A program made the position numbers and the translations under genes. This document shows, piece by piece, positions 11,647 to 33,928 of a stretch of 35,218 bases of DNA (position 1 is the first letter of the stretch; the number at the start of each line of letters is the position of its first letter). Source of the DNA: an uncultured bacterium (GTDB lineage Bacteria > Krumholzibacteriota > Krumholzibacteriia > Krumholzibacteriales > Krumholzibacteriaceae). The stretch is taken from assembly GCA_965371515.1 (NCBI GenBank), contig CBDUYR010000028.1, positions 1 to 35,218 on the forward strand. The letters run 5' to 3'. Below the pieces are notes generated by a model, which was given only the letters and a program-made list of their open reading frames with translations, did no database searches and was not told where the DNA came from.

Positions 11647-12195
11647 ATGGAACAGCAGGGATTTATAACGCTCATCGAGGCCGATGACATCCAGCGCCGC
11701 GTGCGTGAGATGGCCGAACGCATTTCCATCGATTACGCGGAGTCGAACCCGCTCATCATCGTCCTCCTGAAGGGCGCCTTCATCTTCACAGCCGACCTGA
11801 TCAGAAACCTCACCATACCGCACGAGATTGATTTCATCACCCTGTTCAGCTACGGAAACGGGACGAAGCGCAGCACCGACGTCGGAGTAATCAATCATAT
11901 CCGCAGCCACATAGAGGACCGCGACATCATCATCGTCGACGAGATCGTCGATACGGGTCACACTCTCTCTCGACTGATCAAGACTCTGGCTGACCACAAC
12001 GCCCGCAGTTTCAGGATATGCACCCTGCTCGACAAGCCCGACGCCCGCGAGGTCGAGATCGATGTGGATTACGTTGGATTCACGATACCTGACGTGTTCG
12101 TAGTCGGTTACGGGCTCGATTACAGGGAGAGATACCGGAACCTCCCCTATATTGCCGAACTGACACCCGAGATTAAAAAAACCATTAACTTGTAA
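11647..12195 (+). CDS. hpt: hypoxanthine phosphoribosyltransferase
   Basis: LLKGAFIF, PRPP-binding IIVDEIVDTGHTL, LLDKP and FVVGYGLDY..YRNLP; tilS-hpt-ftsH synteny. Confidence 0.95.
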   Translation: MEQQGFITLIEADDIQRRVREMAERISIDYAESNPLIIVLLKGAFIFTADLIRNLTIPHEIDFITLFSYGNGTKRSTDVGVINHIRSHIEDRDIIIVDEIVDTGHTLSRLIKTLADHNARSFRICTLLDKPDAREVEIDVDYVGFTIPDVFVVGYGLDYRERYRNLPYIAELTPEIKKTINL

Positions 12196-12344
12196 CGGGT
12201 TATTCGGTTGGACAAACAACCCGTTATCGCTTATCTTGGTTTCAGAAGTCGGAGTACGGCAGATTTCCCTGCCGTATCAGGGGGCAGGTTGTGCGCTGCC
12301 CCTCCAGACCGTTACAACCTATTAATCTACGGAGTAACACACAA

Positions 12345-14480
12345 ATGAACGGTGACAATAAAGACCGTGACAGGAATCCAAAAAAGAAATGGCTCCCGCC
12401 CGGCGGGACTCCCGGACAGCAGAAGCCGTCGAGATCGATGGCGCTCTGGGTGATGGTCATCATACTCTTCTTCCTCGCTTTCCTCCTGTTCAACTCGGGC
12501 AAGGAGAGGGAATGGCCCATCGACTACAGCCAGTTTATCGCCGAGATAGACAACGGTAATATCGCGAGCGTGAAGATCAAAGGGATCGAGGTGCGCGGAA
12601 TACTCGTGAACCCGATAATGATACCTACCGGCGGGGAAGGTACAACGATATCGAGCTTCAAAACGATACTCCCCGCCGAGGACAGCCAGCTCGCCGAGCG
12701 TATCTGGAAAAACAATCCCGACGCGAAGATAGAGGCGGAATACCCTGGTAGCAGCGTCTGGGTGAAGGCGCTCGCGACCGCCCTCCCCCTCATCGCCCTG
12801 CTCGTACTGTGGGTCCTGCTGATGCGCAACATGCAGGCGGGAGGCAACAAGGCCTTCTCGTTCGGCAAGAGCAAGGCGAAGATGATGAGCGACGACATGC
12901 CGCGTGTCACGTTCGACGACATCGCCGGAGTCGATGAAGCCAAGGAAGAGCTCCAGGAGATCATCGAGTTCCTCAAGTCCCCGAAGAAGTTCCAGAAACT
13001 CGGCGGCCGAATACCAAAGGGCGTCATCCTGCTCGGTCCTCCCGGGACGGGCAAGACTCTGCTCGCCAGGGCCGTAGCGGGCGAAGCGAGCGTGCCGTTC
13101 TTCAGCATGAGCGGATCCGATTTCGTCGAGATGTTCGTCGGTGTCGGCGCGAGCCGTGTCCGCGACCTCTTCGACAAGGGAAAGAAGCACGCACCGTGCA
13201 TCCTCTTCATCGATGAGCTCGACGCCGTAGGCCGCCACAGGGGCGCAGGACTGGGCGGCGGGCATGACGAGCGCGAACAGACGCTCAACCAGCTCCTCGT
13301 CGAGATGGACGGATTCGAGACGAACGAGGGAGTCATCCTTCTCGCAGCGACAAACAGACCAGACGTCCTCGATCCGGCGCTGCTCAGGCCCGGGCGTTTC
13401 GACAGGCGCGTCATCGTCGACATGCCCGATATGAGGGGAAGGCTCGGCATCCTCAAGGTCCACACAAGAAACATACCATTGGCCGAAGACGTCGACCTCG
13501 AGATACTCGCCAGGGGAACACCCGGCATGTCGGGCGCCGACCTGGCCAACATGGTTAACGAGGCGGCGCTGCTCGCAGCGAGGCGCGACAATGATAAGGT
13601 CTACATGACCGAAATGGAAGAGTCCAAGGACAAGGTCTTCCTCGGTCCCGAGAGGCGCAGCCGCGTATTCAAGGAAGACACGAGGCGCATGACGGCATAC
13701 CACGAGGCGGGACACGCAGTGGTTGGATCGTTCGTCGAGAATGCCGATCCCCTGCACAAGGTGACGATCATCACCAGGGGCCAGGCCGGTGGTCTGACCT
13801 CATTCCTCACCGACGACGACAACTACTACTACCAGTCGAAGGAATACCTCCTCGACATGATAACCATGGCGCTCGGCGGCCGCGTCGCCGAAGAACTGTT
13901 CATCGGCAGGATAGGCAGCGGCGCCTACGGAGACATCAGGAATTCGACGAGCATCGCGCGCAAGATGGTCATGCAGTGGGGCATGAGCGAAAAGCTCGGC
14001 CCGATCGCCTTCGGCAACAAGGAGGAACAGATCTTCCTCGGACGTGAGATCGCCACGCGCAAGGACTATAGCGAGAAAACCGCCCAGGATATCGACGCCG
14101 AGGTAAAAAGGATCATTTCGGAATGCCACGACAAGGCCCGCAGGATCCTCTCCGAGCATGAGCAGCAGCTCCATGCCGTAGCCAAGGCCCTTCTCGAGCG
14201 CGAAACGCTCGACGCGGAAGATGTAAAAATACTTCTCAGCGGCGGCAACCTTCCTCCGGTGATGAAGAAACCGGAACGCAAGAAGACCGTGGACAAGACC
14301 GAGCCTGCCTCGCCGGGGGAACCGGACCTCCATGCGGAGACGGATATCAGCGATGAGGCACCCTCTTCCGGGGAACCTTCCGCCGTCGATGAAAAGGACG
14401 ACACGGTGAAAAACGAATCGGGCCCGGCAGATCTCTTTTCGGATACGAACAAGAACAGCGACCCCGACCCGAACACGTGA
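12345..14480 (+). CDS. ftsH: ATP-dependent zinc metalloprotease FtsH
   Basis: Two TM helices, Walker A GPPGTGKT, Walker [19 protein letters not shown] and HEAGH. ATG at 12345 with GGAG SD. Confidence 0.98.
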
Positions 14481-15736
14481 CAGATCGCTCCGGAAGGAGG
14501 GGCGCACGGCAGCGGCAGATGCGTTACAAGCTCCACCTTATCTCTTCCACACGCAGGTCAACGCTCGCCGGGCACCTCCGCAGGGCGGGCGTGGATCCGG
14601 CCGGCATCGAAATCATGACACGGAAGGCTGAGACCGTGATCATACGGATCTGCAACCTCTCCGCGGCGGCAGCCAATATCCTGAAACAGCAGATGCTCTC
14701 CATCGGCGGCGACGCAGCCGTCCACAGGGAAGTGATACACGGCGCCCCCGACAATTCATGCGCCTACCTGATCTCGGACGCGAAGAGGCTCGAGATCCTC
14801 GCCGGTAATCTGGCAAGCCAGCCGTTCGGCCTTGGCGAGGCGGGCGCGGAAATCTTTCGGCTGCTGGGGATGAGATCCTCTCCGCCAGCCACTGTAAACC
14901 TTCCCGGAGGCTCTCTCGACCTGACCGGCGGCCCCCTCATCATGGGAATACTCAACGTGACACCCGACAGCTTCAGCGACGGTGGACATTTCAGCGATCC
15001 GTCGGCGGCGGCCGAAAGGGCCGCGCAGATGGTCGAAGAGGGCGCCTCGATAGTCGACATCGGCGGAGAATCGAGCAGGCCCGGAGCCGCCGAGCTCGAC
15101 CCGGCCGAGGAACTCGACCGTGTCGCACCGGTGCTCGAGAAAACGGCCGGCCTGAACGGCGCCGTCATATCCATCGATACCAGGCATGCCACTGTCGCGA
15201 GGGAGGCGGTCCGCCTTGGAGCATCGATCATCAACGATATCAGTGGTTTTACTCACGATCCCGGGATGACTGAAGTCGCCGTCGAGTCCGGTACGGCAGT
15301 CGTAGTAATGCACATGAAAGGCACTCCCGAAACGATGCAGGACGACCCGAGCTACGACAACGCTGTAGACGAAATATCCGCCTGGCTCGAGTCAGCAGCG
15401 GACAGGCTCGCCGAAGGCGGCATCGCACGCGACAAAATAATCATTGACCCGGGAATCGGATTCGGAAAAAGATTGGAAGACAATGTGGAGATCATCGATC
15501 GTATAGGCGATTTCCATACGCTCGGATATCCCGTTCTCGTCGGACATTCCCGCAAGTCGTTCATCGGAACAATCACCGGGCGGGACAGACCCGAGGAAAG
15601 AACGGACGGCGGACTGGCTGTGACGAGCAGGTGCCTCGATGCCGGAGTCCAGATCCTGCGCGTTCACGAAGTACACGAGACGGCCGACTACATCAGGGTC
15701 TGGAAGGCCATCAACGGGAAAGGCGGCTCCTCTTGA
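14477..15736 (+). CDS. folP: dihydropteroate synthase with N-terminal extension
   Basis: Motifs MGILNVTPDSFSDGG, DIGGESSRPG, IDPGIGFGK, SRKSFI and LRVHEV. Start is GTG 14477 or ATG 14519. Confidence 0.95.
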   Translation: MTDRSGRRGARQRQMRYKLHLISSTRRSTLAGHLRRAGVDPAGIEIMTRKAETVIIRICNLSAAAANILKQQMLSIGGDAAVHREVIHGAPDNSCAYLISDAKRLEILAGNLASQPFGLGEAGAEIFRLLGMRSSPPATVNLPGGSLDLTGGPLIMGILNVTPDSFSDGGHFSDPSAAAERAAQMVEEGASIVDIGGESSRPGAAELDPAEELDRVAPVLEKTAGLNGAVISIDTRHATVAREAVRLGASIINDISGFTHDPGMTEVAVESGTAVVVMHMKGTPETMQDDPSYDNAVDEISAWLESAADRLAEGGIARDKIIIDPGIGFGKRLEDNVEIIDRIGDFHTLGYPVLVGHSRKSFIGTITGRDRPEERTDGGLAVTSRCLDAGVQILRVHEVHETADYIRVWKAINGKGGSS

Positions 15737-16509
15737 GCTCTTTTCATTTCAACCTCACGATCGATCTGCTCGACATACTGATCGTTGCATTCCTCTTCTA
15801 CAGGCTTTTCATGCTTTTCAAAGGGACAAGGGCCATCCAGATGTTCATCGGCCTCTTTCTTCTGATCCTCTTCTCCTTCATCGCTCAGTGGCTGAACCTC
15901 AACGCGCTCAACCGTATCCTGAGCAGTCTGAAAACCGTCCTGGTAATAGCGTTCGTCATCCTGTTCCAGCCCGAGCTGAGAAAGGCGCTGACGCAGCTCG
16001 GTCAGAACAGGATCATAGGGATGTTCCTCAAGGTCGAGTCATCGGGAACCGTCTCGGAAACAGTAAAGGCCTGCCAGCTTCTCGCACAGAAGGGACTGGG
16101 CGCAATCATAGTCGTCGAACGCGACGTCGGCCTGAAGAACTACATCGAGACGGGCACAAGGCTCGACGCGAAGGTTACCAGCGAGCTCCTCGTATCGATA
16201 TTCACTCCTCCTGGACCTCTGCATGACGGTGCTGTGATCGTCGAGAAAGACAGGATCATTGCAGCGGGGTGTATCCTGCCACTTTCGCAGAATCCACGGA
16301 TCGGCCGCGCCCTGGGCACCCGCCACAGGGCCGGGCTCGGACTCTCCGAGGAAACGGACGCCATTGCGATCATTGTCAGCGAGGAAACAGGCTCGATCTC
16401 GCTGGCCCGCGAGGGCAAGCTCAAACGCAAGCTCGACCTCAACGCACTGAGAAACGAGCTCGTTGCCATCATCGGAATAAAATCCACCGAGACCGTTCCC
16501 GCCGCGTGA
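15733..16509 (+). CDS. cdaA: membrane diadenylate cyclase CdaA/DacA
   Basis: Three N-terminal TM helices, ILFQPELR, LHDGAV (DGA motif), GTRHRA (RHR motif) and VSEETG. TTG start overlaps the folP stop. Confidence 0.93.
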   Translation: MSSFHFNLTIDLLDILIVAFLFYRLFMLFKGTRAIQMFIGLFLLILFSFIAQWLNLNALNRILSSLKTVLVIAFVILFQPELRKALTQLGQNRIIGMFLKVESSGTVSETVKACQLLAQKGLGAIIVVERDVGLKNYIETGTRLDAKVTSELLVSIFTPPGPLHDGAVIVEKDRIIAAGCILPLSQNPRIGRALGTRHRAGLGLSEETDAIAIIVSEETGSISLAREGKLKRKLDLNALRNELVAIIGIKSTETVPAA

Positions 16510-16826: not shown

Positions 16827-18377
16827 CTAGTCTCTTTGCGGTTCCCTGATCATGCCTCTCTCTACCAGCCTGATCAGATGTCCGATGACTTCGGCATCGA
16901 ACTTGTCGGTCTGGAGCTTAAGCTGCTCGAGGGCTTCCCCGTATCCGAAAGCCGTCCGATAGGGCCTGTCGCTCGTCATCGCGTCGAAGCTGTCGGCAAC
17001 AGCCACGATCCTCGCTCCGAGCGATATTTCATCGCCCTTCAGGCCATCGGGATATCCGCGCCCGTCGAGACGTTCGTGATGGTGCCTGACCAGATCGGAT
17101 GCGGCCTCGAGGAATTTCATGTTTTTGATGATGTTCGCACCGACCTCAGGATGGCTTCTCACAATTTCCCATTCCCCGTCGGTCAGTTCTCCGGGCTTGT
17201 TGAGAATGTCCTCGAACACGCCGAGTTTCCCGATGTCGTGGAGCGCGGCGCCGAAACTGACCGTCTCGAGATCCGTCTTTTCCAGATTCATCTCCTCGGC
17301 GATCAACGTGGCGAACATCGCGACCCTGTCTGTATGGCCCCTGGTATAGGAATCCTTGGCCTCTATCGTGGAGACAAGGACCTTGATCGTGGAAAGGTAC
17401 GTGGATTGGAGTTCGGAGTAGAGCCTCGCATTTTCCAGACCCGTAGCGAACGAGCTGCATATCGACCTGAATACGTCCCAGTCGTCTGACGAATATTCCT
17501 GACCGCTTACTTTAGCTCCGAGAAACACTATCCCGATTATGGAAGACTTGACGATCAGTGGATAGCAGTAGTGAAATCCCAGGTCCCGCATGAACTCTAT
17601 CTCGCGACTCGTGCCGTCGGGCATCTCATCGCTTCTCAGATCGAGCGTTCCCTGCTGAGTCAGCAGGAATTGGCTCATCCCTGTCTCTTTGGAAAGCCTG
17701 ACAGTCCTCAGAATGGTGTCCCTTATACCCCTGCCCCCAAAGTACGAGAGATGATTCTTCGTGTCGTTCGGCGCGAAAAAGAGACATGCAGAACCGATGC
17801 CCAGCTGACCGGCTATCGTAAGGAAAAAGACGTTTGTCAGTTCCTCGGGATCTTGCAGCCTGTTGAGGTCCTGGCTCAGATCGAAGATTGAACGCAGGTC
17901 GAGGACCTTCTTCTTCAGCTCCTTGTTGACTCTTTGAATGTCATCTACACTCTTCTGGATCTCGTCTTCGAGATGCTCGTTCTTCTCCAGGAGATCCCTG
18001 CGTCTACTCGCCTGCGACAGGAAGTTGTCGACCTTGGCGATCATCTCTTTGACGGAGAAAGGTTTCTTTATATAATCCTGCGCCCCGGACTTGAATCCTT
18101 CCAGCATGTTTTCGGGAATGGCGTTGCCTGATATCATGATAATCGGCACGTCGCGGTTGATGTCGCGACTCCTTATCTCGTCGCATACGGCGAATCCATC
18201 CTTCCGTGGAAGAACCACGTCGAGTACAACGAGGTCGGGAAGGAATTCATCGTATTTACGCAGCGCCGACTCGCCGTCAAGGGCGTACTCGGTGTTGTAC
18301 CCCCTGTTCCTCAAGGATTCTGTGATTATCTCGACCACGTTGGGATCGTCGTCGACTACGAGAATGTTACCTCTCAC
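16827..18377 (-). CDS. REC-GAF-HD-GYP cyclic-dinucleotide phosphodiesterase response regulator
   Basis: REC motifs ILVVDDD...VLDVVLP...KPF. HD-GYP motifs TRGHTDRV, LHDIGK, HHERLDGRGYP and ADSFDAMTSDRPYR are all intact. GTG 18377 with GAGG SD. Confidence 0.92.
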   Translation of the reverse strand: MRGNILVVDDDPNVVEIITESLRNRGYNTEYALDGESALRKYDEFLPDLVVLDVVLPRKDGFAVCDEIRSRDINRDVPIIMISGNAIPENMLEGFKSGAQDYIKKPFSVKEMIAKVDNFLSQASRRRDLLEKNEHLEDEIQKSVDDIQRVNKELKKKVLDLRSIFDLSQDLNRLQDPEELTNVFFLTIAGQLGIGSACLFFAPNDTKNHLSYFGGRGIRDTILRTVRLSKETGMSQFLLTQQGTLDLRSDEMPDGTSREIEFMRDLGFHYCYPLIVKSSIIGIVFLGAKVSGQEYSSDDWDVFRSICSSFATGLENARLYSELQSTYLSTIKVLVSTIEAKDSYTRGHTDRVAMFATLIAEEMNLEKTDLETVSFGAALHDIGKLGVFEDILNKPGELTDGEWEIVRSHPEVGANIIKNMKFLEAASDLVRHHHERLDGRGYPDGLKGDEISLGARIVAVADSFDAMTSDRPYRTAFGYGEALEQLKLQTDKFDAEVIGHLIRLVERGMIREPQRD

Positions 18378-18390
18378 GACAATACACCTC

Positions 18391-20262
18391 TCAGGAAACA
18401 ACTCCGGCGGGCTGTACCGATTTCGCCATTTCCTTCTCCATTATCGCGGTAAACTGGTTGACGACCTCACGATCGTAACGCAGGCCGTAATTCTCCTTAA
18501 GGGTATCGAGCGCTTCCCTGCCGGACAGGGCCGGCCGGTTCGGCCTCTCGTTTATCATGGCCGCATAACTCTCGACGACGGAAATCAGCCTCGATCCCAG
18601 AGGGATCTCCTTCCCTCTGAGACCTCTCGGGTAACCCTCGCCGTTGAACCGCTCATGATGGCTGAGCACGATCTCGACGACGTGGTCGTCGAATTTCATA
18701 CGCCTGAGCATTTCCGCTCCGTCCTCGGGATGTTTCTTGATTACCTGCCACTCTTCCTTGGACAGCTCGCGCGGACTACGCACGATGAGATCGCTTACCT
18801 TCACCATACCCATATCCCTGAGCACGGTACCGTATATCAGATCCTTGAAGTTCTCTTCGGGGTAATTCATGTTTTTGGCGACTATTCCCACGTAACGGGA
18901 CACGATCTCGGATGTCCCCTTCAACATGGTGTTTTCCTCTATGAGTGATATGAGTGTCTTGACTATGCCGAGAGTCCTCTCGTTTTCCCTTTCGAACATC
19001 ATGGCGTTGCTGTACGCACCCTTCGCCAGGTTGACGAGTATCTGCATGAATTCGAAATCTTCTTTCTGCATATGCCTGCCGACAAGACGCTTGCCGAGTA
19101 ATATCAGGCCGGTCATCTCCTCGCCCTGATTGAAGGGACATACATACTCCAGCCCCACCTCGTTGAGATCGCTTCTCACCTTGTCGCTCAGCGATATGTT
19201 TTTTATCTCGAAAACATCCCTGCCCCAGATGATACGTTCCACCTCGTTGTCGCTCAGCTCGATCGGGGAAAGATCGTCCTCGTCAATGCCCTTGGCTATG
19301 GCGGGCATGAAGACTCCCTCTTTATTCTCGTAGAAGACGGCAGATTCGACTCCGCCCTGAGCTATCGATGTCAGCAGGAAGATATCGAGAAGTTTCTTGC
19401 GTTCCCTGATCGAATTGAAGTCCGCACTGATGGAAAACAGGGTCTTCATTTCTAGGATGCGCCTTTTGAGCCTCTTGTTGAGCTCCTTGACGTCTTCAGT
19501 CTCGATCTCATCGAGGAGACTGAACGGCGATACCGGATCGTCGATCCACTCGGGCGGAGATTCACTCGACTTGGAGCTGAATATCTCCGAAATGATCCCT
19601 TCCTCGCTCCCGACGTCCTCTTCCGCGGCAGCCTGTGGTGTGCTCTCTGTTTCCCTGGCTTCAGCTGACTCCTCGACAGCCGATTCCTCCTGCTCCATGC
19701 CCGATTGCGGCTTGTCACCGCCGGAATCGTACGTCATCAGAATAACCCCGTCCTCACCGGCCGGAGCACTTTCAGGGACAGCTTCCTGCTGCGCGTCGAC
19801 GGGCTCATCTTCCTTTTCGGCCTCCGCCGATCCAGCAGCCCGAGGAGCATCCTGTTTCTTTTTTTCCATCGAGGGTTCGGAAGCCTTCGCAGCTTCCTTC
19901 CCTTTTTTCGCGTCCGGCGGCGCACCGCCGGAGATAGCCTCATCCAGTGTCGAACAGATGCGGATGTTCGTCTCGTCGTCCTCAAGAAAATCGAGTACAA
20001 CACTGTTCGTGACCACGAACGTGGTCTCGCCGCCCATCTCCTTGAGAGTCTTCACAAACTTCCTGAGGATCTTCGCTACACCGCCACCGAGCGACGTGAG
20101 CTCTGAGAAGTCGAAGACGACATGCTTGAGCTCTCTCTTGAGACATTCCTGCGTCAGTTGCTCGACTTTCTTGTTCTCGTGGAATCCGAGTTTGCCCGAG
20201 ACCTGGAATCCGGCGCTGTCGGCAGCGCCGATCTCGAGTTTGTCGAACCTTGTCCTTGCCAT
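18391..20262 (-). CDS. STAS-linker-GAF-degenerate HD-GYP protein
   Basis: N-terminal STAS-like domain (VSGKL...VVFDFSELTSL), acidic linker, GAF, then HHERFNGEGYP, but HD is replaced by RD (LRDMG). Confidence 0.85.
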   Translation of the reverse strand: MARTRFDKLEIGAADSAGFQVSGKLGFHENKKVEQLTQECLKRELKHVVFDFSELTSLGGGVAKILRKFVKTLKEMGGETTFVVTNSVVLDFLEDDETNIRICSTLDEAISGGAPPDAKKGKEAAKASEPSMEKKKQDAPRAAGSAEAEKEDEPVDAQQEAVPESAPAGEDGVILMTYDSGGDKPQSGMEQEESAVEESAEARETESTPQAAAEEDVGSEEGIISEIFSSKSSESPPEWIDDPVSPFSLLDEIETEDVKELNKRLKRRILEMKTLFSISADFNSIRERKKLLDIFLLTSIAQGGVESAVFYENKEGVFMPAIAKGIDEDDLSPIELSDNEVERIIWGRDVFEIKNISLSDKVRSDLNEVGLEYVCPFNQGEEMTGLILLGKRLVGRHMQKEDFEFMQILVNLAKGAYSNAMMFERENERTLGIVKTLISLIEENTMLKGTSEIVSRYVGIVAKNMNYPEENFKDLIYGTVLRDMGMVKVSDLIVRSPRELSKEEWQVIKKHPEDGAEMLRRMKFDDHVVEIVLSHHERFNGEGYPRGLRGKEIPLGSRLISVVESYAAMINERPNRPALSGREALDTLKENYGLRYDREVVNQFTAIMEKEMAKSVQPAGVVS

Positions 20263-20283
20263 CTGGCCGCTCCCGCCCGGACG

Positions 20284-20526
20284 TTACTCCGCGTGTACAA
20301 CCACCTCTTCTTCCTGAGCGAGCCATCTGTCCAGAACGCTCCTCAGGAAGCGCCACTCGCTTCCAACCTTTTTCGCGGGAATTTTCTTTTCCTTCGCGAG
20401 ACGACATACGGTTTTAACATGCATCTTGAGATACTCCGCCGCCTCGACGGATGTCATGACCTCGGTGGCGTCGTCGTTGCCGCCGATGATGATGCTGCCG
20501 TAGTCCCTGTTGTGCTGTTTAACCAT
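20284..20526 (-). CDS. small excisionase-family (HTH_17) DNA-binding protein
   Basis: VMTSVEAAEYLKMHVKTVCRLAKEKKIPAKKVGSEWRF...LDRWL; GAGAGG SD. Confidence 0.88.
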   Translation of the reverse strand: MVKQHNRDYGSIIIGGNDDATEVMTSVEAAEYLKMHVKTVCRLAKEKKIPAKKVGSEWRFLRSVLDRWLAQEEEVVVHAE

Positions 20527-20623
20527 GACAACCTCTCTACGCTTGATGATCTGGAACCGACGGCAGAGAACGCCGGTACCGTTTCAGTCTATACCTGCAC
20601 GCGTTCAGGCACGCGAATTCGTT

Positions 20624-22294
20624 CTAATTTACCTCGACTACTTCATCTACCCAGGAACCGGTCTCCCCCATTTCTTCCTCGAATCCCTGTACCCAGCTGT
20701 AACGATCTATCACCAGCTGGACGTCCAGGACGGGGAATTCCCGTTCTCCGATGTGGAGAAGACGTCCGGACAGCGACGCCCAGTCGTTCTCCGTCACCTG
20801 CTCGATCAGGCCCTCGACCTTCCGGCCTGGCCCCTCTGACAGGATGCCGATCCGTTTTTCAGCCAACCCGAGTATCACGACATGGTTACCCTCGGAACCG
20901 GCGTCGAGCTCATCGGCCGCAAGCTCGTCTATTCTGCAGACAGGGATACGCGAACCGCCTTGTCTGACGGATCTGCCTCCCTGGTCGCTGTCGATCTGAA
21001 TACTGGAGAGATCGATGACATTGTCCACGCTGTGCTTTGGAACGGCAAACGTCATGCCGGCCGAATCGATCAGGTGATAGTCCGTAATCACAGACGTGCG
21101 TGGAAAGGTGAACCTGAAGCGATCTTCGCTCCCATCGCCTGGCTCTACCCACAACAGCGCTCCCCATTTCCTGAGCAGCCCCCTGGCCTGAAGTAACCCG
21201 TGGTAGTATGCCATTGCGTCGTCCCTGTCGATCTCGGAATCATTGAGATAGTCGCTCGCGTCGTCGAACACCCTGGCCGTCAGATACGAGCCCTCGCTGG
21301 ATACATCTATCTTCACACTTATATCTCTTCTGTTGCTTCGTTCGCTCATCCTGCATATATCGAATACACAGTTTTCGAGGATTACGGCCAAGTCTGTCGC
21401 GGCCTCTCTCTCGAGCGAGAAAACATCGGTCCTCGTCTTCAGCTCCGTCTTCCAGTTCCTCAACCTGCTGTGGATCCCTATGAAATCATTCAGCCCGTCC
21501 ATCACCGTCGAGCTCGAGACCTTCGATCTGAAAGTCTTGTGGTTATCTCCAAGCCTGCTCAACATGCTGCCGAGCATAGCCATGAAAAACTCGCTCTCGC
21601 CGATCGCCAGCTCGAGATCTCTGACCGCCGCGTCTCCCCTGTTCCCCTCGCTGAGACATTCTTCCAACCTGTCGTCGATCTTCTTCAGCGAACTCTGGAG
21701 TCTCGTTATGGTCGCGAATCCATTTGTCTTACAGCCTGTGGATTCGCCGGATTCAGCTTCAGCGTTCTGCTGAACTGTCTCTTCGGCACTACTGTCCCCT
21801 GCGGGCATCTCGAAGGGGGACTCCTCCCCCTGCGCGGACTCCTTCTCTATACTCACGCCAGGTTCGGAAGGCGTATCGTCGATATTCCCGAACGGTTCGG
21901 AGAGGATCAGCTCTATCTCCTGCTGAAGTCCCCCGAAATGCGTGAGATCGATCTCCCCGTCCTCGTCGGCAATGATCTCGGCGACCGCCTGCTCCTCCGT
22001 CTCGAGGATCTCGGATACGATCTGCGAGACCTGCTCATCCCAGTGTCTTCCAGCGGAGAAAAATCTTTCGAGAAGTTCCCTGAACATCGTGAGCGTACTG
22101 CACCACTCGTCGAGACCAAGCATCCGCGTACTGCCTTCGAGGAGTCTTCCCGCGAAAGTGGCTTTCTCGACCGGGGTCCTGTCCAGCGGCTGTCCGCAGG
22201 CAAATCCCATCAGATCGTTGAGCTTGGCGATGTGGTCGTTGACCTGCTCGCCAAATAGCTGTCTGTTCTCACTGCTCAGCATCACCACGGACAT
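20624..22294 (-). CDS. CheA-like protein (Hpt-like, HATPase-like, CheW), catalytically degenerate
   Basis: Hpt-like AGRLLEGSTRMLG, HATPase remnants ILENCV and VFDD, then RFTFPRTSVITDYHLIDSAGMTFAVP leading into a CheW-like domain. Confidence 0.75.
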   Translation of the reverse strand: MSVVMLSSENRQLFGEQVNDHIAKLNDLMGFACGQPLDRTPVEKATFAGRLLEGSTRMLGLDEWCSTLTMFRELLERFFSAGRHWDEQVSQIVSEILETEEQAVAEIIADEDGEIDLTHFGGLQQEIELILSEPFGNIDDTPSEPGVSIEKESAQGEESPFEMPAGDSSAEETVQQNAEAESGESTGCKTNGFATITRLQSSLKKIDDRLEECLSEGNRGDAAVRDLELAIGESEFFMAMLGSMLSRLGDNHKTFRSKVSSSTVMDGLNDFIGIHSRLRNWKTELKTRTDVFSLEREAATDLAVILENCVFDICRMSERSNRRDISVKIDVSSEGSYLTARVFDDASDYLNDSEIDRDDAMAYYHGLLQARGLLRKWGALLWVEPGDGSEDRFRFTFPRTSVITDYHLIDSAGMTFAVPKHSVDNVIDLSSIQIDSDQGGRSVRQGGSRIPVCRIDELAADELDAGSEGNHVVILGLAEKRIGILSEGPGRKVEGLIEQVTENDWASLSGRLLHIGEREFPVLDVQLVIDRYSWVQGFEEEMGETGSWVDEVVEVN

Positions 22295-22299
22295 TCACC

Positions 22300-24210
22300 T
22301 CACAGATTCACTTCGGTCTTTTCCACGTACTCTACTGCACCCAGTTCGAAAAGGTCGTGTACGGGCTCCGCGTCGGGATCCGGCACTACCTCAGGCTCTA
22401 TCTCATCAACGTGCGCGTTATCCACTACCGGTTCTACTTCCACCTTTACCCAGTCGTCAGTCTGTTCCTGCATATTATCCCAGTTCTCGTCCGCAGACAG
22501 ATCGGCTTCCACGACTGTTTCCTGCTGAGGAGACGCCTCCTGCTCCACTTCCGCGACCGGGTCGCCGGCGAACAGTTCGTCCACCATATCGGGGGCCTCT
22601 TCGGCCTGTACTTCCTCCTCAGCTTCTTCACTTGTCTCTTCGGGAATCTCTGCCTCCTCTGAGGCAACCTCTTCAGCGGGAACCTCATCCACCTGCGGCT
22701 GATCAGCATCGGACAGCATGGCACTCATCGCTTCCTGGAATCCCGAGAGGGCCTCATCACTGTCGTCAGTGACATCTTCTTCGATAACATCATCAGACGG
22801 AGCGCTCGCGTCGCCCTCGGCCTCCATGCCGTTCTCTGGAGCTGTTTCGGATCCCTTCCATACAGTTCCATGGTCTATCACGAGGTCCGAATCGTCGATC
22901 CCGCCGGGCTCTTCGGCAGATTCATCGGCGTTTGCGCCGAAATTCACGATCGAGCCATCTGTGGCACGGATGCGATCGTCTCCACCTTGATCGGCCTGTA
23001 GCTCTTCGTTTATCTCTTCCACGCCGCTGCCGAGGGCCATTATCTTCTGCTGAAGGGCCTGGCTGCGCGATTCGATCTTTGTAGATATCTCTATTATCCG
23101 ACGTTCCACCTCGGGAGAAGTACCGGAATCGGCGGCAACGGAGCCGCCAGCAGATGATCTTGCGTTCCTGCTGCTGCTGGCCACGGTCCTCACCAGGCCC
23201 TCGAGCTCTCGCCCAAGCTTACCGAACCTCTCGGCAGTCGATCTGACCTTCTCGGCGAGCAGTGCGAGGTCCTTCTCGGTCGCCTCGCCCCTGGCGGCCA
23301 TCAGCGCTATATTGAGAGCAAGGCCATTGCCTTCCTCGGAGAGATCGTGGATCGCTGAGCTTCTCTCCTCGAGAGCGGCGGCGGCGGTCTCGACAGCCGC
23401 AATCGCGTCGGAGGGAGAACCGGCATCTGCGACTGTACCGGATCCGTTGGACCCGAGGCCTTCGGCCACCTCGTTGAGCTCACCTGCCGACTTGACTATA
23501 TCCAGTATGTCCTCACTGGCGCCCGCGACTGTCTCGACAATCTTGCCGCAGGAGAGGGAAGCACGGCCGGCCGCCTGCCTGGCCGCCTCGGACTGTTTCC
23601 TGATCTCTTCTGTTCCACCGACATTCTCATCCGCCCAGCACTGGACCTTCTTCGCGATCGAGACCCACCATTTACCCTCGGCGATCGTCTCGTTCAGCCC
23701 ATTCCCCTCGAGGATCGAATCTATCTCCATCTCGAAATCGACGGAGCTCATCTCCACTTCACGACTCTCAATGTCTTCGGAGATCTCGCGGATCTGGTCG
23801 CCATAGTTTCTCAGGACCTTCTGGAGTCTGGGGTAGTCGGAAAGCCTCGCTATCTGGGCCGGATTGGTCAGATCGTCTATGCTTTTCGCCAGGGAAATCA
23901 TCTTCCGGTAATCCTGTCCGGAATTGAGGTAGTACTTGTATCTGCGTACCGCGGTAGCTATGACAAAATATGTGAACAGTGAGAGAAGTATCACGCCGGC
24001 CGCTGCCGGATATATCTCCCTGAAGAACTGGTACGAATCGACGACCCACCTGCTGACATCGGAACTGAGCCAGTAGAGGTCGATGTCGTATACCCTGACC
24101 ATGTAATAACCGACACCGAAGCTGGTAGCGACGAGCATGAGCGCCACCATGGTACCGATCTTCCACGGAGAAGTGAGTACGGGTCTCTTGTCTCGCTTTC
24201 GCTTTCCCAC
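22300..24210 (-). CDS. membrane MCP-like protein with degenerate signalling domain and acidic tail
   Basis: Two N-terminal TM helices; IHDLSEEGNGLALNIALMAARG...LAEKVRSTAER resembles the MCP hairpin; E/D-rich C-terminus. GTG 24210 with AAGGAG SD. Confidence 0.75.
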   Translation of the reverse strand: MGKRKRDKRPVLTSPWKIGTMVALMLVATSFGVGYYMVRVYDIDLYWLSSDVSRWVVDSYQFFREIYPAAAGVILLSLFTYFVIATAVRRYKYYLNSGQDYRKMISLAKSIDDLTNPAQIARLSDYPRLQKVLRNYGDQIREISEDIESREVEMSSVDFEMEIDSILEGNGLNETIAEGKWWVSIAKKVQCWADENVGGTEEIRKQSEAARQAAGRASLSCGKIVETVAGASEDILDIVKSAGELNEVAEGLGSNGSGTVADAGSPSDAIAAVETAAAALEERSSAIHDLSEEGNGLALNIALMAARGEATEKDLALLAEKVRSTAERFGKLGRELEGLVRTVASSSRNARSSAGGSVAADSGTSPEVERRIIEISTKIESRSQALQQKIMALGSGVEEINEELQADQGGDDRIRATDGSIVNFGANADESAEEPGGIDDSDLVIDHGTVWKGSETAPENGMEAEGDASAPSDDVIEEDVTDDSDEALSGFQEAMSAMLSDADQPQVDEVPAEEVASEEAEIPEETSEEAEEEVQAEEAPDMVDELFAGDPVAEVEQEASPQQETVVEADLSADENWDNMQEQTDDWVKVEVEPVVDNAHVDEIEPEVVPDPDAEPVHDLFELGAVEYVEKTEVNL

Positions 24211-24305
24211 GTCTATCTCCTTCAAACAGATAAAGTACCGGCTATCCGACTCCCGTATGACGCGTAGTCGTCCTCATTAGTCGTTTCCATTCCTCCGGCG
24301 AATCC

Positions 24306-24320
24306 GCAAAGATTATGCCA
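24306..24320 (-). promoter_or_regulatory. sigma54 (-24/-12) promoter upstream of the MCP-like operon
   Basis: Minus strand TGGCAT-AATCT-TTGC, with exact GG-N10-GC spacing. Confidence 0.7.
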
Positions 24321-25385: not shown

Positions 25386-25401
25386 TGGCATAGACCTTGC
25401 A
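25386..25401 (+). promoter_or_regulatory. sigma54 (-24/-12) promoter
   Basis: TGGCAT-AGACC-TTGCA, with exact GG-N10-GC spacing, about 55 nt before the ATG at 25456. Confidence 0.7.
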
Positions 25402-25455: not shown

Positions 25456-26235
25456 ATGGAGTCTTCAACAGCGTACAGACCGGTAGGAAGGGGCAGCACC
25501 CGCCCATCTCCAGCCTATTACTACATGATGGACAACCTGCTCGAGTGCAGAAAGGAGAGCGGGTTCCCGTCCAACAGGGAATTTTTCGACGAGGATGTAA
25601 ACGTCTACCTCGCCGGGCTGCTCACCTCTCACGTCTTCGGAATTACTGCAGGCACAACTGGCGGAATAATAACGCCTTACGACATTACTGTATTCGAAGC
25701 GGCTCGCGACGAGGCCGATCCCCGCAGGAGATTCAATATCTACAGGGCGAACGCCGACCATCTTCTCGTAAGGCTCGGGGTGTTCGACAATCCCATCGAC
25801 CGCAGGCCGGGCTCGGCGATTCACATGGCCCTGAGGAGTGATGCATGGATCGGCAGGGGCAAGGCATACTACAGACTCGCGTGGGCATGCGCTGCTGAGA
25901 CATTCAGGCGCCCGACGGCGATCGGCGACATAATGGAGAAACTCTCCAATGGATTCGAGAGGTATATCGGGGTCCTCTCCGCGATGAGGTCCTCCTGCCT
26001 CAACATGATCCCCCACATAAGCGACGGCGAGATGTTCCATCTGGAGAGAAAAGTCCTGGAAGAGGACAGGAAAAAGGAGATCGCCGCCTTGTACGACCGT
26101 TTCCTGGACGCATGGACGGCATACCGCAGATCCCGGGACCAGGATGACAGGAAAAAACTTGGGATGGTATCCGAAGAGTTGAAAAAGGCCGACCCGTCGT
26201 TCTCGTTCGATCCCCTCTCAGCGGATACCTGCTAG
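25456..26235 (+). CDS. hypothetical helical protein
   Basis: 259-aa ORF filling the gap between two minus-strand genes, with an SD-like GAGAGAG and an upstream sigma54 site. No catalytic motif recognised. Confidence 0.75.
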   Translation: MESSTAYRPVGRGSTRPSPAYYYMMDNLLECRKESGFPSNREFFDEDVNVYLAGLLTSHVFGITAGTTGGIITPYDITVFEAARDEADPRRRFNIYRANADHLLVRLGVFDNPIDRRPGSAIHMALRSDAWIGRGKAYYRLAWACAAETFRRPTAIGDIMEKLSNGFERYIGVLSAMRSSCLNMIPHISDGEMFHLERKVLEEDRKKEIAALYDRFLDAWTAYRRSRDQDDRKKLGMVSEELKKADPSFSFDPLSADTC

Positions 26236-30400: not shown

Positions 30401-31414
30401 TCAGCAGATCCGCGGCAGGAGGTCTCCGTAAGGCAGGTCGACGACTCTCTCCCCCCCGAAAGATGTCTTCATGATCACACGACCCACGGGTCCGGCGACC
30501 ACCTCGCCTATTATCACTGCGTCCTTTCCCAATTCCATGCCTCGCATAGCCTCGAGGACGGCATCGGCTTCACCTGGATCGACGATTGCGACAAGCTTCC
30601 CCTCGTTGGCGATGTTGAGCGGGTCGTATCCCATCAGCTCGCACCCGTTCCTCACCGCTTCGGCAACCGGTATAAGCTCTTCCTCTATTCTGACGCAGAT
30701 ATTCGAATCGACCGCGATCTCGTTGAGTACTGCGGCGAGCCCTCCCCTCGTTGCGTCGCGCATCGCCCTGATGCTGGCGAAGTTCTCGAGCAACGGCACT
30801 GTGAGTTTCGAAAGAGGCGCGGCATCGCTCTTCAGGTCGCTCCCGAAATCGATCCCCTCGCGCATGCTCAGTATCGCGAGACCGTGATCGCCTATCGTAC
30901 CGCTTACGATGATCCTGTCTCCCTCCACGGCGGAATCGGAAGAGAGGAATATGCCGGCGGGCACGATTCCTATCCCCGCCGTATTTATGAAGATGCCGTC
31001 GGCCTTGCCGCGATCGACGACCTTGGTATCCCCGGTTACCACGGTCACACCAGCCTCTTCGGCGGCGGCTCTGATCGACGACGCGATCCTCTCGAGATCG
31101 GTCACGGGGAATCCCTCCTCGATGATCATCGCGAGTGAGATGAACTTCGGAACGGCGCCGCAGACAGCGAGGTCGTTGACCGTTCCGCAGACGGCGAGAT
31201 GACCGATGTCGCCACCAGGAAAAAAGAGCGGGTGGACAACGAACGAATCGGTAGTAAAGGCAAGCCGGCCGGCCGGCACGTCTAACACGGCGCTGTCCTG
31301 AAGCGCGCCCTCCTGCCCGCCGACCATGTCGACGAGGAAGGAGACGAGTTCCTTCATCATTATCCCACCACCGCCGTGGGCGAGGAGTATCTTCTCGTCC
31401 TCGAGCCTGCTCAT
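30401..31414 (-). CDS. hypE: hydrogenase maturation carbamoyl dehydratase HypE
   Basis: AHGGGG, FTTDSFVV, GTVNDL, GDTKVV, RDATRGG, ANEGK and C-terminal PRIC. ATG at 31414 with SD. Confidence 0.96.
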   Translation of the reverse strand: MSRLEDEKILLAHGGGGIMMKELVSFLVDMVGGQEGALQDSAVLDVPAGRLAFTTDSFVVHPLFFPGGDIGHLAVCGTVNDLAVCGAVPKFISLAMIIEEGFPVTDLERIASSIRAAAEEAGVTVVTGDTKVVDRGKADGIFINTAGIGIVPAGIFLSSDSAVEGDRIIVSGTIGDHGLAILSMREGIDFGSDLKSDAAPLSKLTVPLLENFASIRAMRDATRGGLAAVLNEIAVDSNICVRIEEELIPVAEAVRNGCELMGYDPLNIANEGKLVAIVDPGEADAVLEAMRGMELGKDAVIIGEVVAGPVGRVIMKTSFGGERVVDLPYGDLLPRIC

Positions 31415-31457
31415 CCCTTCAGCTCCCTTTTTGATATGCTGTAAAACATCAGCCGCA

Positions 31458-33776
31458 TTATAGCGTACCCTTGGCGATCCTGGCAGCGGCAATCTGTACC
31501 TGCCCCAGCGAGACTCCGCCGTCGTTCGGAGGCACCATCCTGTGCATCAGAAAATCGATCCCGGTACGGGCTGAAAGCTCCATGACCCGCTCACAGAGCA
31601 ACCTGTTCTGGAAGACGCCCCCGGACAGGACTGCCGCCTGGCATCCGTTCAGCGATGCCAGCCTGACGGCAGTATCCACTATCATCCCGGCGACGCTCTC
31701 GTGGAAAACCGCGGCTATCTCCGCCTGTTCCACCCCCGCGCCAAGGTCCTCCAGTATCCCTGCGATCACCGGAGCGGCGTCGATCTCGACCGGATGGTTC
31801 TCGCCATATCCGAAACTGTATCTCTTCCCGACCGGGCCCTTCTCGAGCGCGAGGCTTTCGAGTGCGATCGCTGCCTGAGCCTCGTAGCTCACCCGCAGAC
31901 CGAGCCCGAGAAGACCTGCCACCGCGTCGAAGAGCCTGCCGGCGCTCGAGGTCATCATCGAGTTTATGTTGCGGTCGGCCATCTCCATGATTATCTCCGC
32001 GGGGAGGTCGCCGAGCGGCAGCCCCTGTGGAGCATTGTCGACAGCCGAGGCCCCGTACAGCTCGCGCAGGTACATCAGCGACATCCTCCACGGTTCCCTC
32101 ACCGCTTTCTCTCCGCCGGGGAGAGGGACACACTTGAGGTGCGCGAGCCTTCTGAAATCATGCGGGTGCGCCAGCAGAAACTCTCCTCCCCATAATGTTC
32201 CGTCGCCCCCGTACCCCGTGCCGTCGAACGAAACGCCGATCACCGGCTCGCTCAGGCCGTACTCGGCCATGACGCTGACCGCGTGGGCATGATGGTGCTG
32301 CACCTCGATTATCCTGTCGGCAGGGAGCAGCTTGGCTATCCTCGACGTGAAATAATCGGGGTGCATGTCCCTCACGATGATCGAGGGCGATACAGAAAGC
32401 ATTTTCTCGAATGAATCGAGCTCGCGGCGGTAGTTCTTCTCGCTCCTGTAATCGCCCATGTCCCCCAGGTGTGGAGAGACAAAGGCCGAATCGCCCCTCG
32501 TCAGTGTAAAAGTCCCCTTTTCCTGTCCGCCCAGCCCGAGGATGCAGACATCGGCGCCGGGGCTGATCGGTACGGGCTCGGGCACGAATCCCCGGGCTCG
32601 CCTCACCGGCACGGGCACTCCGCCCGGGACGAAGAATATCGAGTCGTCGCACTTGTGCGCTATCCGTCTGTCGTTGACGAGCGCCGCGTCGGCCATCGTC
32701 CCGAGTATCCCGAGAAGTTCCTCCTCATTCGAGATAAGCGGTTCGTCGGTAAAATTGGCCGAGGTCATGATCAGAGCTTCGAAATCCTCCATGAGCAGGT
32801 GATGAACCGGCGTGTAGGGCAGGAAGGCCCCGGTGAATGCATTGCCGGGAGCGATCCCGGCAGGGAGAAGCCCCGGTTTCTTTCTGCGCAGGAGGACGAT
32901 CGGCGCCTCCGGCGAGAGGAGCAGCTTCCGCTCGACCTCTCCCGTCTCACAGTACCTCTCGAGAGTATCGATATCGCGGAACATCACGGCAAAAGGCTTT
33001 GCAGGGCGTTTCTTACGCTCGCGGAGGGTGGAGACAGCAGCCACGCTCGCTGCGAGGCAGGCGAGGTGATACCCACCCAGCCCCTTGATAGCGAGTATCT
33101 TTCCGGCAGCGATGAGACGTTTCGCTTCATCGACGGGATCTCCTGAGATCTCCTGCATGTCGGCATCGATCAGCGACAGAGTCGGACCGCAGTTCGGACA
33201 GGAGATCGGCTCGGCGTGGAACCTCCTGTCGGAAGGATCGGCGTACTGCCCGCTGCACAGATCGTCCATCTCGAACTCGCTCATCGTGGTGAGCGGCCTG
33301 TCGTACGGCAGCCCCTCGATTATAGTGAATCTCGGCCCGCAGTTGGTGCAGTTGATGAACGGGTACCTGTGTCTCGGATCCTCGGAATCGCCCATCTCGC
33401 GCAGGCAGTCGGCGCAGACGGCCGTATCGACCGGGTAGAGAGCGTCCGAGCCTCCCGCCTCCTCGCTCTCCACGATCACGAATTCGCTCTCGCCGTTCGT
33501 TTCGACGGCTTCAGCTTCTAGCGAGTCGATCCTCGCAAGCGGCGGCAGGTCGTTCTCGAGGGCCGAGGCGAACGACAGGATCGCCTCGCGCGATCCCTCT
33601 ACCTCTATCAAGACACCGCGCCTGGTGTTCCTCACGAACCCGGCGAGGCCAGCCTCCGCGGCCAGCCTGTAGATCGACGGGCGGAATCCGACCCCCTGCA
33701 CCCGTCCCCTGACGGTCAGAGCGAGCCTTCCGGCTTCTCCCTCGATCTTCGATTCGAATATCTTCCGTATATCCAT
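31458..33776 (-). CDS. hypF: carbamoyltransferase HypF
   Basis: Acylphosphatase-like GRVQGVGFRP, Zn fingers FINCTNCGPRF and CPNCGP, KGLGGYHL, QHHHAH, DGTGYG and NDGGVSLGQ. Confidence 0.96.
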   Translation of the reverse strand: MDIRKIFESKIEGEAGRLALTVRGRVQGVGFRPSIYRLAAEAGLAGFVRNTRRGVLIEVEGSREAILSFASALENDLPPLARIDSLEAEAVETNGESEFVIVESEEAGGSDALYPVDTAVCADCLREMGDSEDPRHRYPFINCTNCGPRFTIIEGLPYDRPLTTMSEFEMDDLCSGQYADPSDRRFHAEPISCPNCGPTLSLIDADMQEISGDPVDEAKRLIAAGKILAIKGLGGYHLACLAASVAAVSTLRERKKRPAKPFAVMFRDIDTLERYCETGEVERKLLLSPEAPIVLLRRKKPGLLPAGIAPGNAFTGAFLPYTPVHHLLMEDFEALIMTSANFTDEPLISNEEELLGILGTMADAALVNDRRIAHKCDDSIFFVPGGVPVPVRRARGFVPEPVPISPGADVCILGLGGQEKGTFTLTRGDSAFVSPHLGDMGDYRSEKNYRRELDSFEKMLSVSPSIIVRDMHPDYFTSRIAKLLPADRIIEVQHHHAHAVSVMAEYGLSEPVIGVSFDGTGYGGDGTLWGGEFLLAHPHDFRRLAHLKCVPLPGGEKAVREPWRMSLMYLRELYGASAVDNAPQGLPLGDLPAEIIMEMADRNINSMMTSSAGRLFDAVAGLLGLGLRVSYEAQAAIALESLALEKGPVGKRYSFGYGENHPVEIDAAPVIAGILEDLGAGVEQAEIAAVFHESVAGMIVDTAVRLASLNGCQAAVLSGGVFQNRLLCERVMELSARTGIDFLMHRMVPPNDGGVSLGQVQIAAARIAKGTL

Positions 33777-33928
33777 AGGGCACTGTCTCAGAATGAAAAA
33801 TGTCATATTAAGATACCGGCGATAGGCGCCTTTTTCCAGCGAAAACGCCCCGAAACGGTCGTGATTTATCTTGCAGCAGGACCCCCCGCGGAAATAGAAT
33901 CGTCCGGAAATCCGGGAAAGGAGATCAG

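Follow-up and report, generated by a model that had tools for sequence, protein, structure and literature searches.

A sigma54-linked operon of degenerate chemosensory homologues and a predicted HD-GYP pair in Krumholzibacteriota and Eisenbacteria

Autophosphorylation of CheA is the defining trait of chemosensory systems. The Wsp system of Pseudomonas, composed of WspA, WspE (a CheA-REC protein) and WspR, is a chemosensory system with an alternative cellular function. The Dif system of Myxococcus signals via an active CheA, DifE, unlike the system described here, which is encoded by a predicted five-gene operon on the minus strand (16827..24320) of a Krumholzibacteriota contig. The window, by which we mean the whole stretch of 35,218 nucleotides that was analysed, belongs to a genome of 3.08 Mb that is 99.6% complete and that falls in Krumholzibacteriota by its named homologues. 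The operon codes, in order, for a degenerate methyl-accepting chemotaxis protein (MCP) homologue (pseudo-MCP), a degenerate CheA homologue (pseudo-CheA), an HTH_17 DNA-binding protein, a protein with a degenerate HD-GYP domain (RD-GYP) and a protein with an intact HD-GYP domain. We propose that the products form a kinase-independent, sigma54-controlled membrane scaffold, which would localise and tune the dead/active HD-GYP pair by protein contact, and we give this reading an even chance of being correct. The system itself is real and ancient and, as far as the literature was searched, undescribed; it would be categorically new if signalling by contact alone holds.

Two described proteins stand close to this proposal. 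In Pseudomonas aeruginosa, according to the accessible text of PMC3861689, CheA localises and activates the phosphodiesterase Pch, forming a polar chemotaxis scaffold for an enzyme of cyclic di-GMP (c-di-GMP) turnover. A metal-free HD-GYP protein of Desulfovibrio, DvhD, binds c-di-GMP, as given in the available part of PMC13090378.

All five genes were found with the domains and at the close spacing claimed in the preliminary description of this DNA, the intergenic distances being 5, 97 and 21 bases and the last junction being either an overlap or a 13-base gap. Pfam assigned, in gene order, weak MCPsignal; weak CheW; HTH_17; STAS and HD_5; and REC, weak GAF and HD_5. No cheW, cheY, cheR or cheB was detected among the 28 open reading frames of the window that were scanned, as had been stated; a separate intact che cluster is located elsewhere in the genome (contigs C11 and C47).

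The second gene (20624..22294, minus strand) encodes pseudo-CheA, a protein of 556 aa with Hpt, helical hairpin, GHKL and P5 regions. A profile of 30 orthologues matched Thermotoga CheA (E 3e-12), CheA proteins were the top Foldseek matches of the structure model (predicted local distance difference test score 80.6), and profile alignment with 16 intact CheAs gave a probability of 99.9% over 520 columns; the CheA fold with its Hpt, dimerisation, GHKL and P5 domains was recognised throughout. In the alignment with the intact CheAs, Arg50 was found at the phospho-His, Asp312 at the N-box Asn and Asp344 at the G1 Asp, the ATP lid was about 35 residues shorter and the G2 box was down to one Gly. 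The Hpt and ATP boxes are degenerate, as first described: no phosphorylatable Hpt His is present, and the N, G1, F and G2 boxes and ATP lid do not form a complete set, although the G1 Asp is kept. The same changes were observed across 247 distinct sequences of the family, counted over those covering each site. The phospho-His position was occupied by Arg in 165, Lys in 47 and His in one of 227 members (212/227 Arg or Lys), Asp was found at the N-box position in 236/237, and the G1 Asp344 was retained in 233/239; the pocket residues Asp312, Asp344, Asp/Glu359 and Tyr364 were 94-100% conserved. A cluster look-up of ten distant pseudo-CheAs returned no taxa. A C-terminal REC domain is attached to pseudo-CheA in five Krumholzibacteriota families (f4, f5, f6, f8 and f9 in our labelling, f1-f9) and is missing from f1-f3. 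Since REC is present in these sister families and CheA-REC hybrids account for 18 of the 29 nearest intact CheAs, the ancestor was likely, on these alignments, a CheA-REC hybrid of the class that we take to be Wsp.

The first gene (22300..24225, minus strand, 641 aa; likely start GTG 24210) encodes pseudo-MCP, with two predicted transmembrane helices (residues 25-43 and 75-93), a loop of about 30 residues between them, no sensor domain and an acidic tail (33% D/E). Myxococcus DifA is comparable: this receptor, from a bacterium that bears pili and is rich in sigma54, also spans the membrane twice and has next to no periplasmic domain. Homology to MCPs was detected at E 6e-12, so that both similarities for which profile and fold searches had been suggested, to CheA and to MCP, were recovered. 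The tip residues are replaced relative to the solved receptors, in line with the degeneracy noted earlier, the MCPsignal score stayed under the cut-off, and a conserved signalling tip is missing. Near the end of the tail, a pattern search in orthologues revealed a conserved peptide (residues 622-633; 22327..22362, minus strand), which is present in strict form in 41/53 orthologues and as near variants in 10 more, is absent from the two f5 rows and is duplicated in many f4 and f8 rows. This peptide is likely a tether. Prediction of a complex between the tail (residues 596-641), the RD-GYP protein and HTH_17 gave a score of 0.00 in a run without controls, which carries no weight either way.

The fourth gene (18391..20262, minus strand, 623 aa) encodes STAS, an acidic linker, a coiled coil, GAF and the RD-GYP domain. 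Relative to an active HD-GYP, four residues are substituted (His to Thr, HD to RD, Asp to Glu and Asp to Ala); the first metal site is lost, while the second-site residues, the GYP Tyr and the RxxR motif are kept; Arg482, Asp483, His511, His535 and His536 are invariant in 38/38 aligned RD proteins from two phyla. The protein is predicted to be a c-di-GMP binder or a regulatory subunit. The phospho-acceptor of STAS, which we place at Gly59-Gly60 by assuming the register, is Gly in Krumholzibacteriota, and two Eisenbacteria STAS domains seem to keep Ser/Thr there. The preliminary description had called both the first HD-GYP and the STAS phospho-Ser degenerate; the former stands (RD for HD), and the latter depends on this assumed register. 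The fifth gene (16827..18401, minus strand, 524 aa; likely start GTG 18377) encodes REC, a coiled coil, GAF and an HD-GYP domain that is intact, as had been proposed: the full metal ligands, the N-terminal Glu of the trinuclear type, the GYP Tyr and RxxR are all present by the motif definitions in section 6 of bioRxiv 10.1101/2021.11.05.467447. In the accessible text of that survey, the substrates of HD-GYP domains are c-di-GMP or cyclic GMP-AMP. Because of RxxR and the trinuclear-type Glu, the substrate in this case is predicted to be c-di-GMP and the fifth protein to be a trinuclear c-di-GMP phosphodiesterase. Its REC Asp61 is kept, and the corresponding Asp was found in 43/46 Krumholzibacteriota and 30/32 Eisenbacteria rows.

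The ratio of nonsynonymous to synonymous substitution (dN/dS) was determined by a pairwise counting method against three same-genus genomes. Within pseudo-CheA it was 0.12-0.19 for Hpt, 0.04-0.13 for P3, 0.05-0.08 for P4 (ATP domain), 0.10-0.15 for P5 and 0.40-0.80 for the linker; the receptor tip gave 0.09-0.25, the RD domain 0.035-0.10 and the intact HD domain 0.045-0.08. Judged by these ratios, purifying selection acts on the degenerate domains; the value for the ATP domain of pseudo-CheA is like that of the intact HD-GYP. The checks first suggested for recent decay were dN/dS, catalytic residues in orthologues and gene order: the ratios lie far below 1, the orthologues also lack the catalytic residues, and the order was unrearranged in 40/40 Krumholzibacteriota neighbourhoods. 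All five genes are present in 33 of these; two have a positional homologue as the first gene, one has no clear first gene, two are without the last gene and two are cut by contig ends. No CheW, CheR or CheB gene was detected in the 40 loci. Pseudo-CheA with an open frame was found in 58/58 genomes from seven families at a completeness of at least 90%. Intact CheA was detected by a CheA search in all f1-f3 genomes; within f5, f6, f8 and f9, the CheA dimerisation domain was found in only 4/28 genomes, and the other 24, including two single-contig genomes (G058 and G177), carry pseudo-CheA with no ordinary CheA found, which indicates that pseudo-CheA is independent of an intact chemosensory system. 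Erosion was observed in f4, where all five genes are present in four loci only and the others keep the receptor, HTH_17 and STAS-RD genes with Hpt, an Hpt-REC fragment or nothing between them; f7 retains HTH_17 alone.

Related loci in Eisenbacteria were reached by using as probe the gene divergent from the operon, which encodes a 259-aa protein (25456..26235, plus strand; the best 80 of 158). Divergent from this gene in Eisenbacteria are genes for pseudo-MCP, pseudo-CheA-REC and a REC-GAF-HD protein. Profile comparison linked the clade-A Eisenbacteria proteins to the families of the window (94.5% and 98.3%), and the clade-B receptor was linked only via clade A. The pseudo-MCP profile matched 99/121 sampled Eisenbacteria genomes, and the 20 matches fetched were all in the expected context. 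Six of these 20 belong to clade C, with the order cheW, pseudo-MCP, pseudo-CheA, STAS-GAF-RD-GYP and intact REC-GAF-HD-GYP; in 6/6 clade-C loci, Arg occupies the His site of pseudo-CheA and a sigma54-type site precedes cheW. Within the operon, cheW is limited to some Eisenbacteria loci, clade C among them. Since the substitutions are common to both phyla, the simplest reading of the alignments is that CheA His to Arg and HD to RD predate the split between Krumholzibacteriota and Eisenbacteria. Reduction also took place in Eisenbacteria, in which pseudo-CheA is cut to P5 alone in two loci (P5 between MCP and enzyme) and to Hpt-REC in one, and many Eisenbacteria are without any RD protein. In one Eisenbacteria clade (L168:4267-5588, L161, L148 and L167) cheD and an HDOD gene are the last genes of the operon, and an intact cheY-cheB-cheR-globin cluster faces it. 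In the HD-GYP domains of clade B (L168:5585-7183 and L163:5704-7293) the second metal site has been lost while the first and RxxR remain, a mirror image of the RD domain. An ESM Atlas cluster of STAS-GAF-HD proteins, with a score of 0.97 to the RD protein, has Coatesbacteria as its commonest named phylum and could represent a third phylum.

The fates of the two HD-GYP genes were compared over distinct, non-truncated loci, five truncated loci being left out. The metal ligands of the enzyme were intact in 51/51 loci with the RD paralogue (49 classified by script, plus L093 and L185, which were misfiled by pattern but carry the paralogue), versus 6/38 without it. In f4 loci that have lost the enzyme, RxxR is gone from the RD domain. 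These two patterns suggest that the RD-GYP and HD-GYP proteins may work as a pair. Tandem dead/active HD-GYP enzymes, of which V-cGAP3 is reportedly one, would be a parallel.

The -24/-12 site noted in the preliminary description was confirmed upstream of the operon (24306..24320, minus strand), about 95 bases ahead of the likely start of pseudo-MCP and with one mismatch to the sigma54 consensus. Strict sigma54-type matches in the window numbered two, against 1.21 expected, and hence are not above chance by themselves; the position of the operon site is kept, with relaxed pattern matches in 37/38 Krumholzibacteriota loci having upstream DNA. Scans of the locus for sigma70 promoters and terminators gave nothing useful. 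Genome-wide, 24 strict sigma54-type sites were found. Other genes behind these sites are pilB-pilT-pilC, pilM and those for an MglA-like GTPase, a Wza-like exporter and GGDEF proteins (names by inspection); about 18 enhancer-binding proteins are encoded, and flagellin was not found in the genome. The distribution of the f4 STAS-RD gene was compared with that of the PilT orthologue, giving 36 genomes with both, 19 with neither and 3 discordant (n=58).

Based on these observations, a chemosensory system deprived of its kinase and adaptation chemistry may have become a membrane scaffold. Pseudo-MCP would anchor pseudo-CheA via the P5 domain, as homology implies, and the complex would localise and tune the predicted c-di-GMP phosphodiesterase. 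The latter could be a heterodimer of the intact REC-GAF-HD-GYP and the degenerate STAS-GAF-RD-GYP proteins, to which the co-decay points, and its REC would presumably be phosphorylated by some other kinase. A role in type IV pilus function or surface behaviour might be expected from the sigma54 regulon. A more specific version, tentative and clearly less probable than the general one, is that a receptor-CheA(-CheW) core turned phosphorylation-free before the phyla split; the sensorless receptor would read the envelope or pilus state and pass it on, as a change of conformation, through a pseudokinase with a phosphate-binding Arg, which would switch the HD-GYP heterodimer and so draw down c-di-GMP locally for type IV pilus behaviour.

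Several observations weigh against this proposal. An intact enzyme occurs without the RD paralogue in six loci, so that the pair is not obligate, and the co-decay pattern rests on few independent events. Most f4 loci, and three in f8, have no intact enzyme; its REC-GAF part was not found elsewhere in 5/5 searched genomes lacking the enzyme at the locus; in most Eisenbacteria, the HD-GYP of the enzyme is eroded while REC is kept. The enzyme is thus dispensable in several lineages and may not be the sole output; since several lineages with the scaffold genes have lost it or carry it in eroded form, its regulation cannot be the only job of the system. A normal array is doubtful in Krumholzibacteriota, as read from the sequences, because pseudo-MCP has an altered tip in the region of receptor packing and P5 binding and the operon is without cheW. 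According to the accessible text of PMC3861689, the effect of Pseudomonas CheA on Pch needs CheA His49, which is absent from pseudo-CheA. The link to type IV pili is weak and serves as a lead only. The double losses of the STAS-RD gene and PilT in f4 fall into one clade of a quick RpoB tree (29 rows, with G085 and G067 missing and G109 and G058 on long branches), PilT is kept without the module in 7/11 f7 genomes, and nearly all of the Eisenbacteria searched have pili, giving no contrast (four of five apparent PilT losses were split genes, and PilM is present in all five); co-occurrence with pili was therefore discarded as strong support. A contact-based scaffold for a cyclic-dinucleotide phosphodiesterase, as first put forward, still appears the best reading of the sequences, with two amendments: HTH_17 is not a fixed part of it, and enzyme regulation is not its only job.

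The products could instead form a complex that reads c-di-GMP, in which RD-GYP acts as receptor while the REC-coiled-coil-GAF portion relays signals, through contacts, to targets in transcription, polarity or the pilus, hydrolysis being optional. We regard this as possible but rather unlikely. The scaffold genes outlast the enzyme in f4 and f8, the REC Asp is maintained in Eisenbacteria while HD-GYP decays, the RD domain retains Tyr and RxxR, and DvhD offers a precedent in the available part of PMC13090378. A receptor would need RxxR, however, and this motif is lost from the RD domain along with the enzyme; furthermore, the RD protein is wholly missing in many Eisenbacteria. Less probable again is reversed signalling of the DivL type, by which pseudo-CheA would sense a phosphorylated REC through its Arg-bearing Hpt, or a nucleotide in its remodelled pocket, and relay what it senses to the membrane protein or to further partners. 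The replacement of His by a basic, not a random, residue in both phyla, the conservation of the four pocket residues and the reductions to Hpt-REC in both phyla agree with such a role, but other reductions retain P5 only and Eisenbacteria clade C has lost the pocket residues.

Anti-sigma kinases phosphorylate STAS domains on Ser/Thr, and the GHKL domain might have residual or changed kinase activity of this kind, with the adjoining STAS gene product as substrate. The G1 Asp and the Asp at the Mg-binding N-box position are compatible with it, whereas the lack of an ATP lid and of most G2 glycines, the Gly at the assumed STAS acceptor position in Krumholzibacteriota and the survival of STAS beyond the GHKL domain in f4 make it improbable. 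Slightly more so is the idea that the dead proteins insert as inhibitors or tuners into arrays of the intact chemosensory system of the genome: the f1-f3 genomes all contain intact CheA, and some Eisenbacteria loci add cheD and adjoin intact che genes, but the 24/28 genomes without a CheA dimerisation domain refute it as a general role. That chance has preserved the genes as decaying remnants, an idea for which the piecemeal erosion in f4, f7 and several Eisenbacteria clades might speak, is refuted by open frames in 58/58 genomes, dN/dS as low as that of the intact enzyme and identical substitutions in two phyla.

The third gene (20284..20526, minus strand, 80 aa; Pfam) encodes the HTH_17 protein, which is single-copy and 71-99% identical in 127/128 Krumholzibacteriota genomes. 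By this near-universal distribution it is, on genome content, a distinct regulator, present across the phylum and situated within the operon, and may be a master regulator or a marker gene of the phylum. It occurs without the module in f7 and in pilus-less f4 genomes and was excluded as a core part of it; it was not seen in the Eisenbacteria operon loci. In some f8 loci the HTH_17 gene has its own sigma54-type site.

A second, divergent sigma54-type site (25386..25400, plus strand; pattern scan) precedes the gene for the 259-aa protein, which is all-helical and belongs to no Pfam or NCBIfam family. This gene was found in 145/181 genomes and is linked to the operon in both phyla, with a sigma54-type site before it in 43/44 Eisenbacteria loci. 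A fold search gave a best Z of 7.8 (root-mean-square deviation 1.5, 57 aligned), not above background, and thus no clear fold. Some Eisenbacteria have two copies of the family, and similar clusters are present in Omnitrophota.

Elsewhere in the window, an hpt-ftsH-folP-cdaA run (11647-16509, plus strand) converges on the operon and forms a housekeeping context that includes a diadenylate cyclase; a link to this cdaA (cyclic di-AMP cyclase) was rejected, as the gene is on the convergent strand, is part of ftsH-folP-cdaA and is often apart from the operon, and HD-GYP domains are described as acting on c-di-GMP or cyclic GMP-AMP. A CN-hydrolase was likewise rejected, being absent from f4, f8 and most Eisenbacteria loci. 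Hydrogenase maturation genes, hypF and hypE-like, lie at 30401-33806 (minus strand). The intact che cluster of the genome reads cheR-MCP-cheW-cheD-cheB-cheA on C11 and continues as cheA-cheC-cheY on C47 (names partly by inspection); this cluster (L180, C47:16431-21793; C11:1-5068), with cheC and cheD, is followed by genes for a TPR protein and a protein resembling a PatA/DUF4388-type N-terminus, as judged by inspection. A complete type IV pilus region (L178, C8:45628-62052) contains pilB, pilT, pilC, a sensor, a sigma54 regulator, pilin, pilMNOPQ and two sigma54-type sites. Another locus (L179, C22:3496-11856) carries a sigma54-preceded REC with partial GGDEF, a kinase-like open reading frame and two membrane GAF/HD-GYP proteins of about 1000 aa, and the MglA-like GTPase, which has an acidic tail, lies behind a sigma54-type site at C19:51809-52757 (L177).

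The operon had not been recognised as a described system in the preliminary description, and no published account of it was found in the literature searched, which did not cover subscription papers. The word "STAS" is absent from the main text of the HD-GYP survey (bioRxiv 10.1101/2021.11.05.467447), whose supplementary Figure S1 and Table S1 could list RD-type domains. The present analysis adds the occurrence in a second phylum and cheW as an ancestral component; it further finds pseudo-CheA to be independent of intact CheA, HTH_17 to be separable from the module and the two HD-GYP genes to follow a pattern of co-decay. If the proposed scaffold is real, there is a second use of the receptor-CheA array architecture that needs no kinase, and selection has kept the pair in two phyla without phosphorylation chemistry, a natural test of how much signalling a scaffold alone can carry. 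The conserved dead/active HD-GYP pair would then be a model for pseudo-enzyme control of c-di-GMP turnover and the system a first entry point to signalling in two phyla for which genomes are all that is known. Every part is either a soluble domain or a membrane protein of two helices, and all are amenable to work in E. coli.

Among known systems, Wsp shares with this operon an MCP and a single-Hpt CheA, which carries a C-terminal REC in the sister families and is accompanied by cheW in one Eisenbacteria clade, as well as a REC-fused c-di-GMP enzyme as the last gene. Unlike Wsp, the operon is without phospho-His, ATP lid, CheR and CheB, its receptor tip is degenerate, and a phosphodiesterase with a dead paralogue takes the place of the cyclase. 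As defined by kinase, signalling tip and adaptation, all of which are defective or missing by residue and gene content, the operon falls outside the chemosensory class, its layout being of the Wsp type. In its proposed role it resembles the CheA-Pch pair as presented in the accessible text of PMC3861689, in which the chemotaxis machinery serves as the scaffold of a c-di-GMP phosphodiesterase; there, however, the scaffold includes a working chemotaxis kinase, and here it would be a dedicated CheA copy without the His. DivL of Caulobacter, in the available part of PMC4211667, is likewise a histidine-kinase fold without kinase activity that is used for protein contact, but DivL is a class I kinase, whereas pseudo-CheA is of the CheA class and is encoded with its own degenerate receptor. 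As with DvhD and other inactive HD-GYP proteins (PMC13090378 and bioRxiv 10.1101/2021.11.05.467447, in their accessible portions), the HD motif of RD-GYP is broken and the domain may bind c-di-GMP or act by contact; unlike DvhD, RD-GYP has lost one metal site only, follows STAS-GAF and is paired with an intact paralogue.

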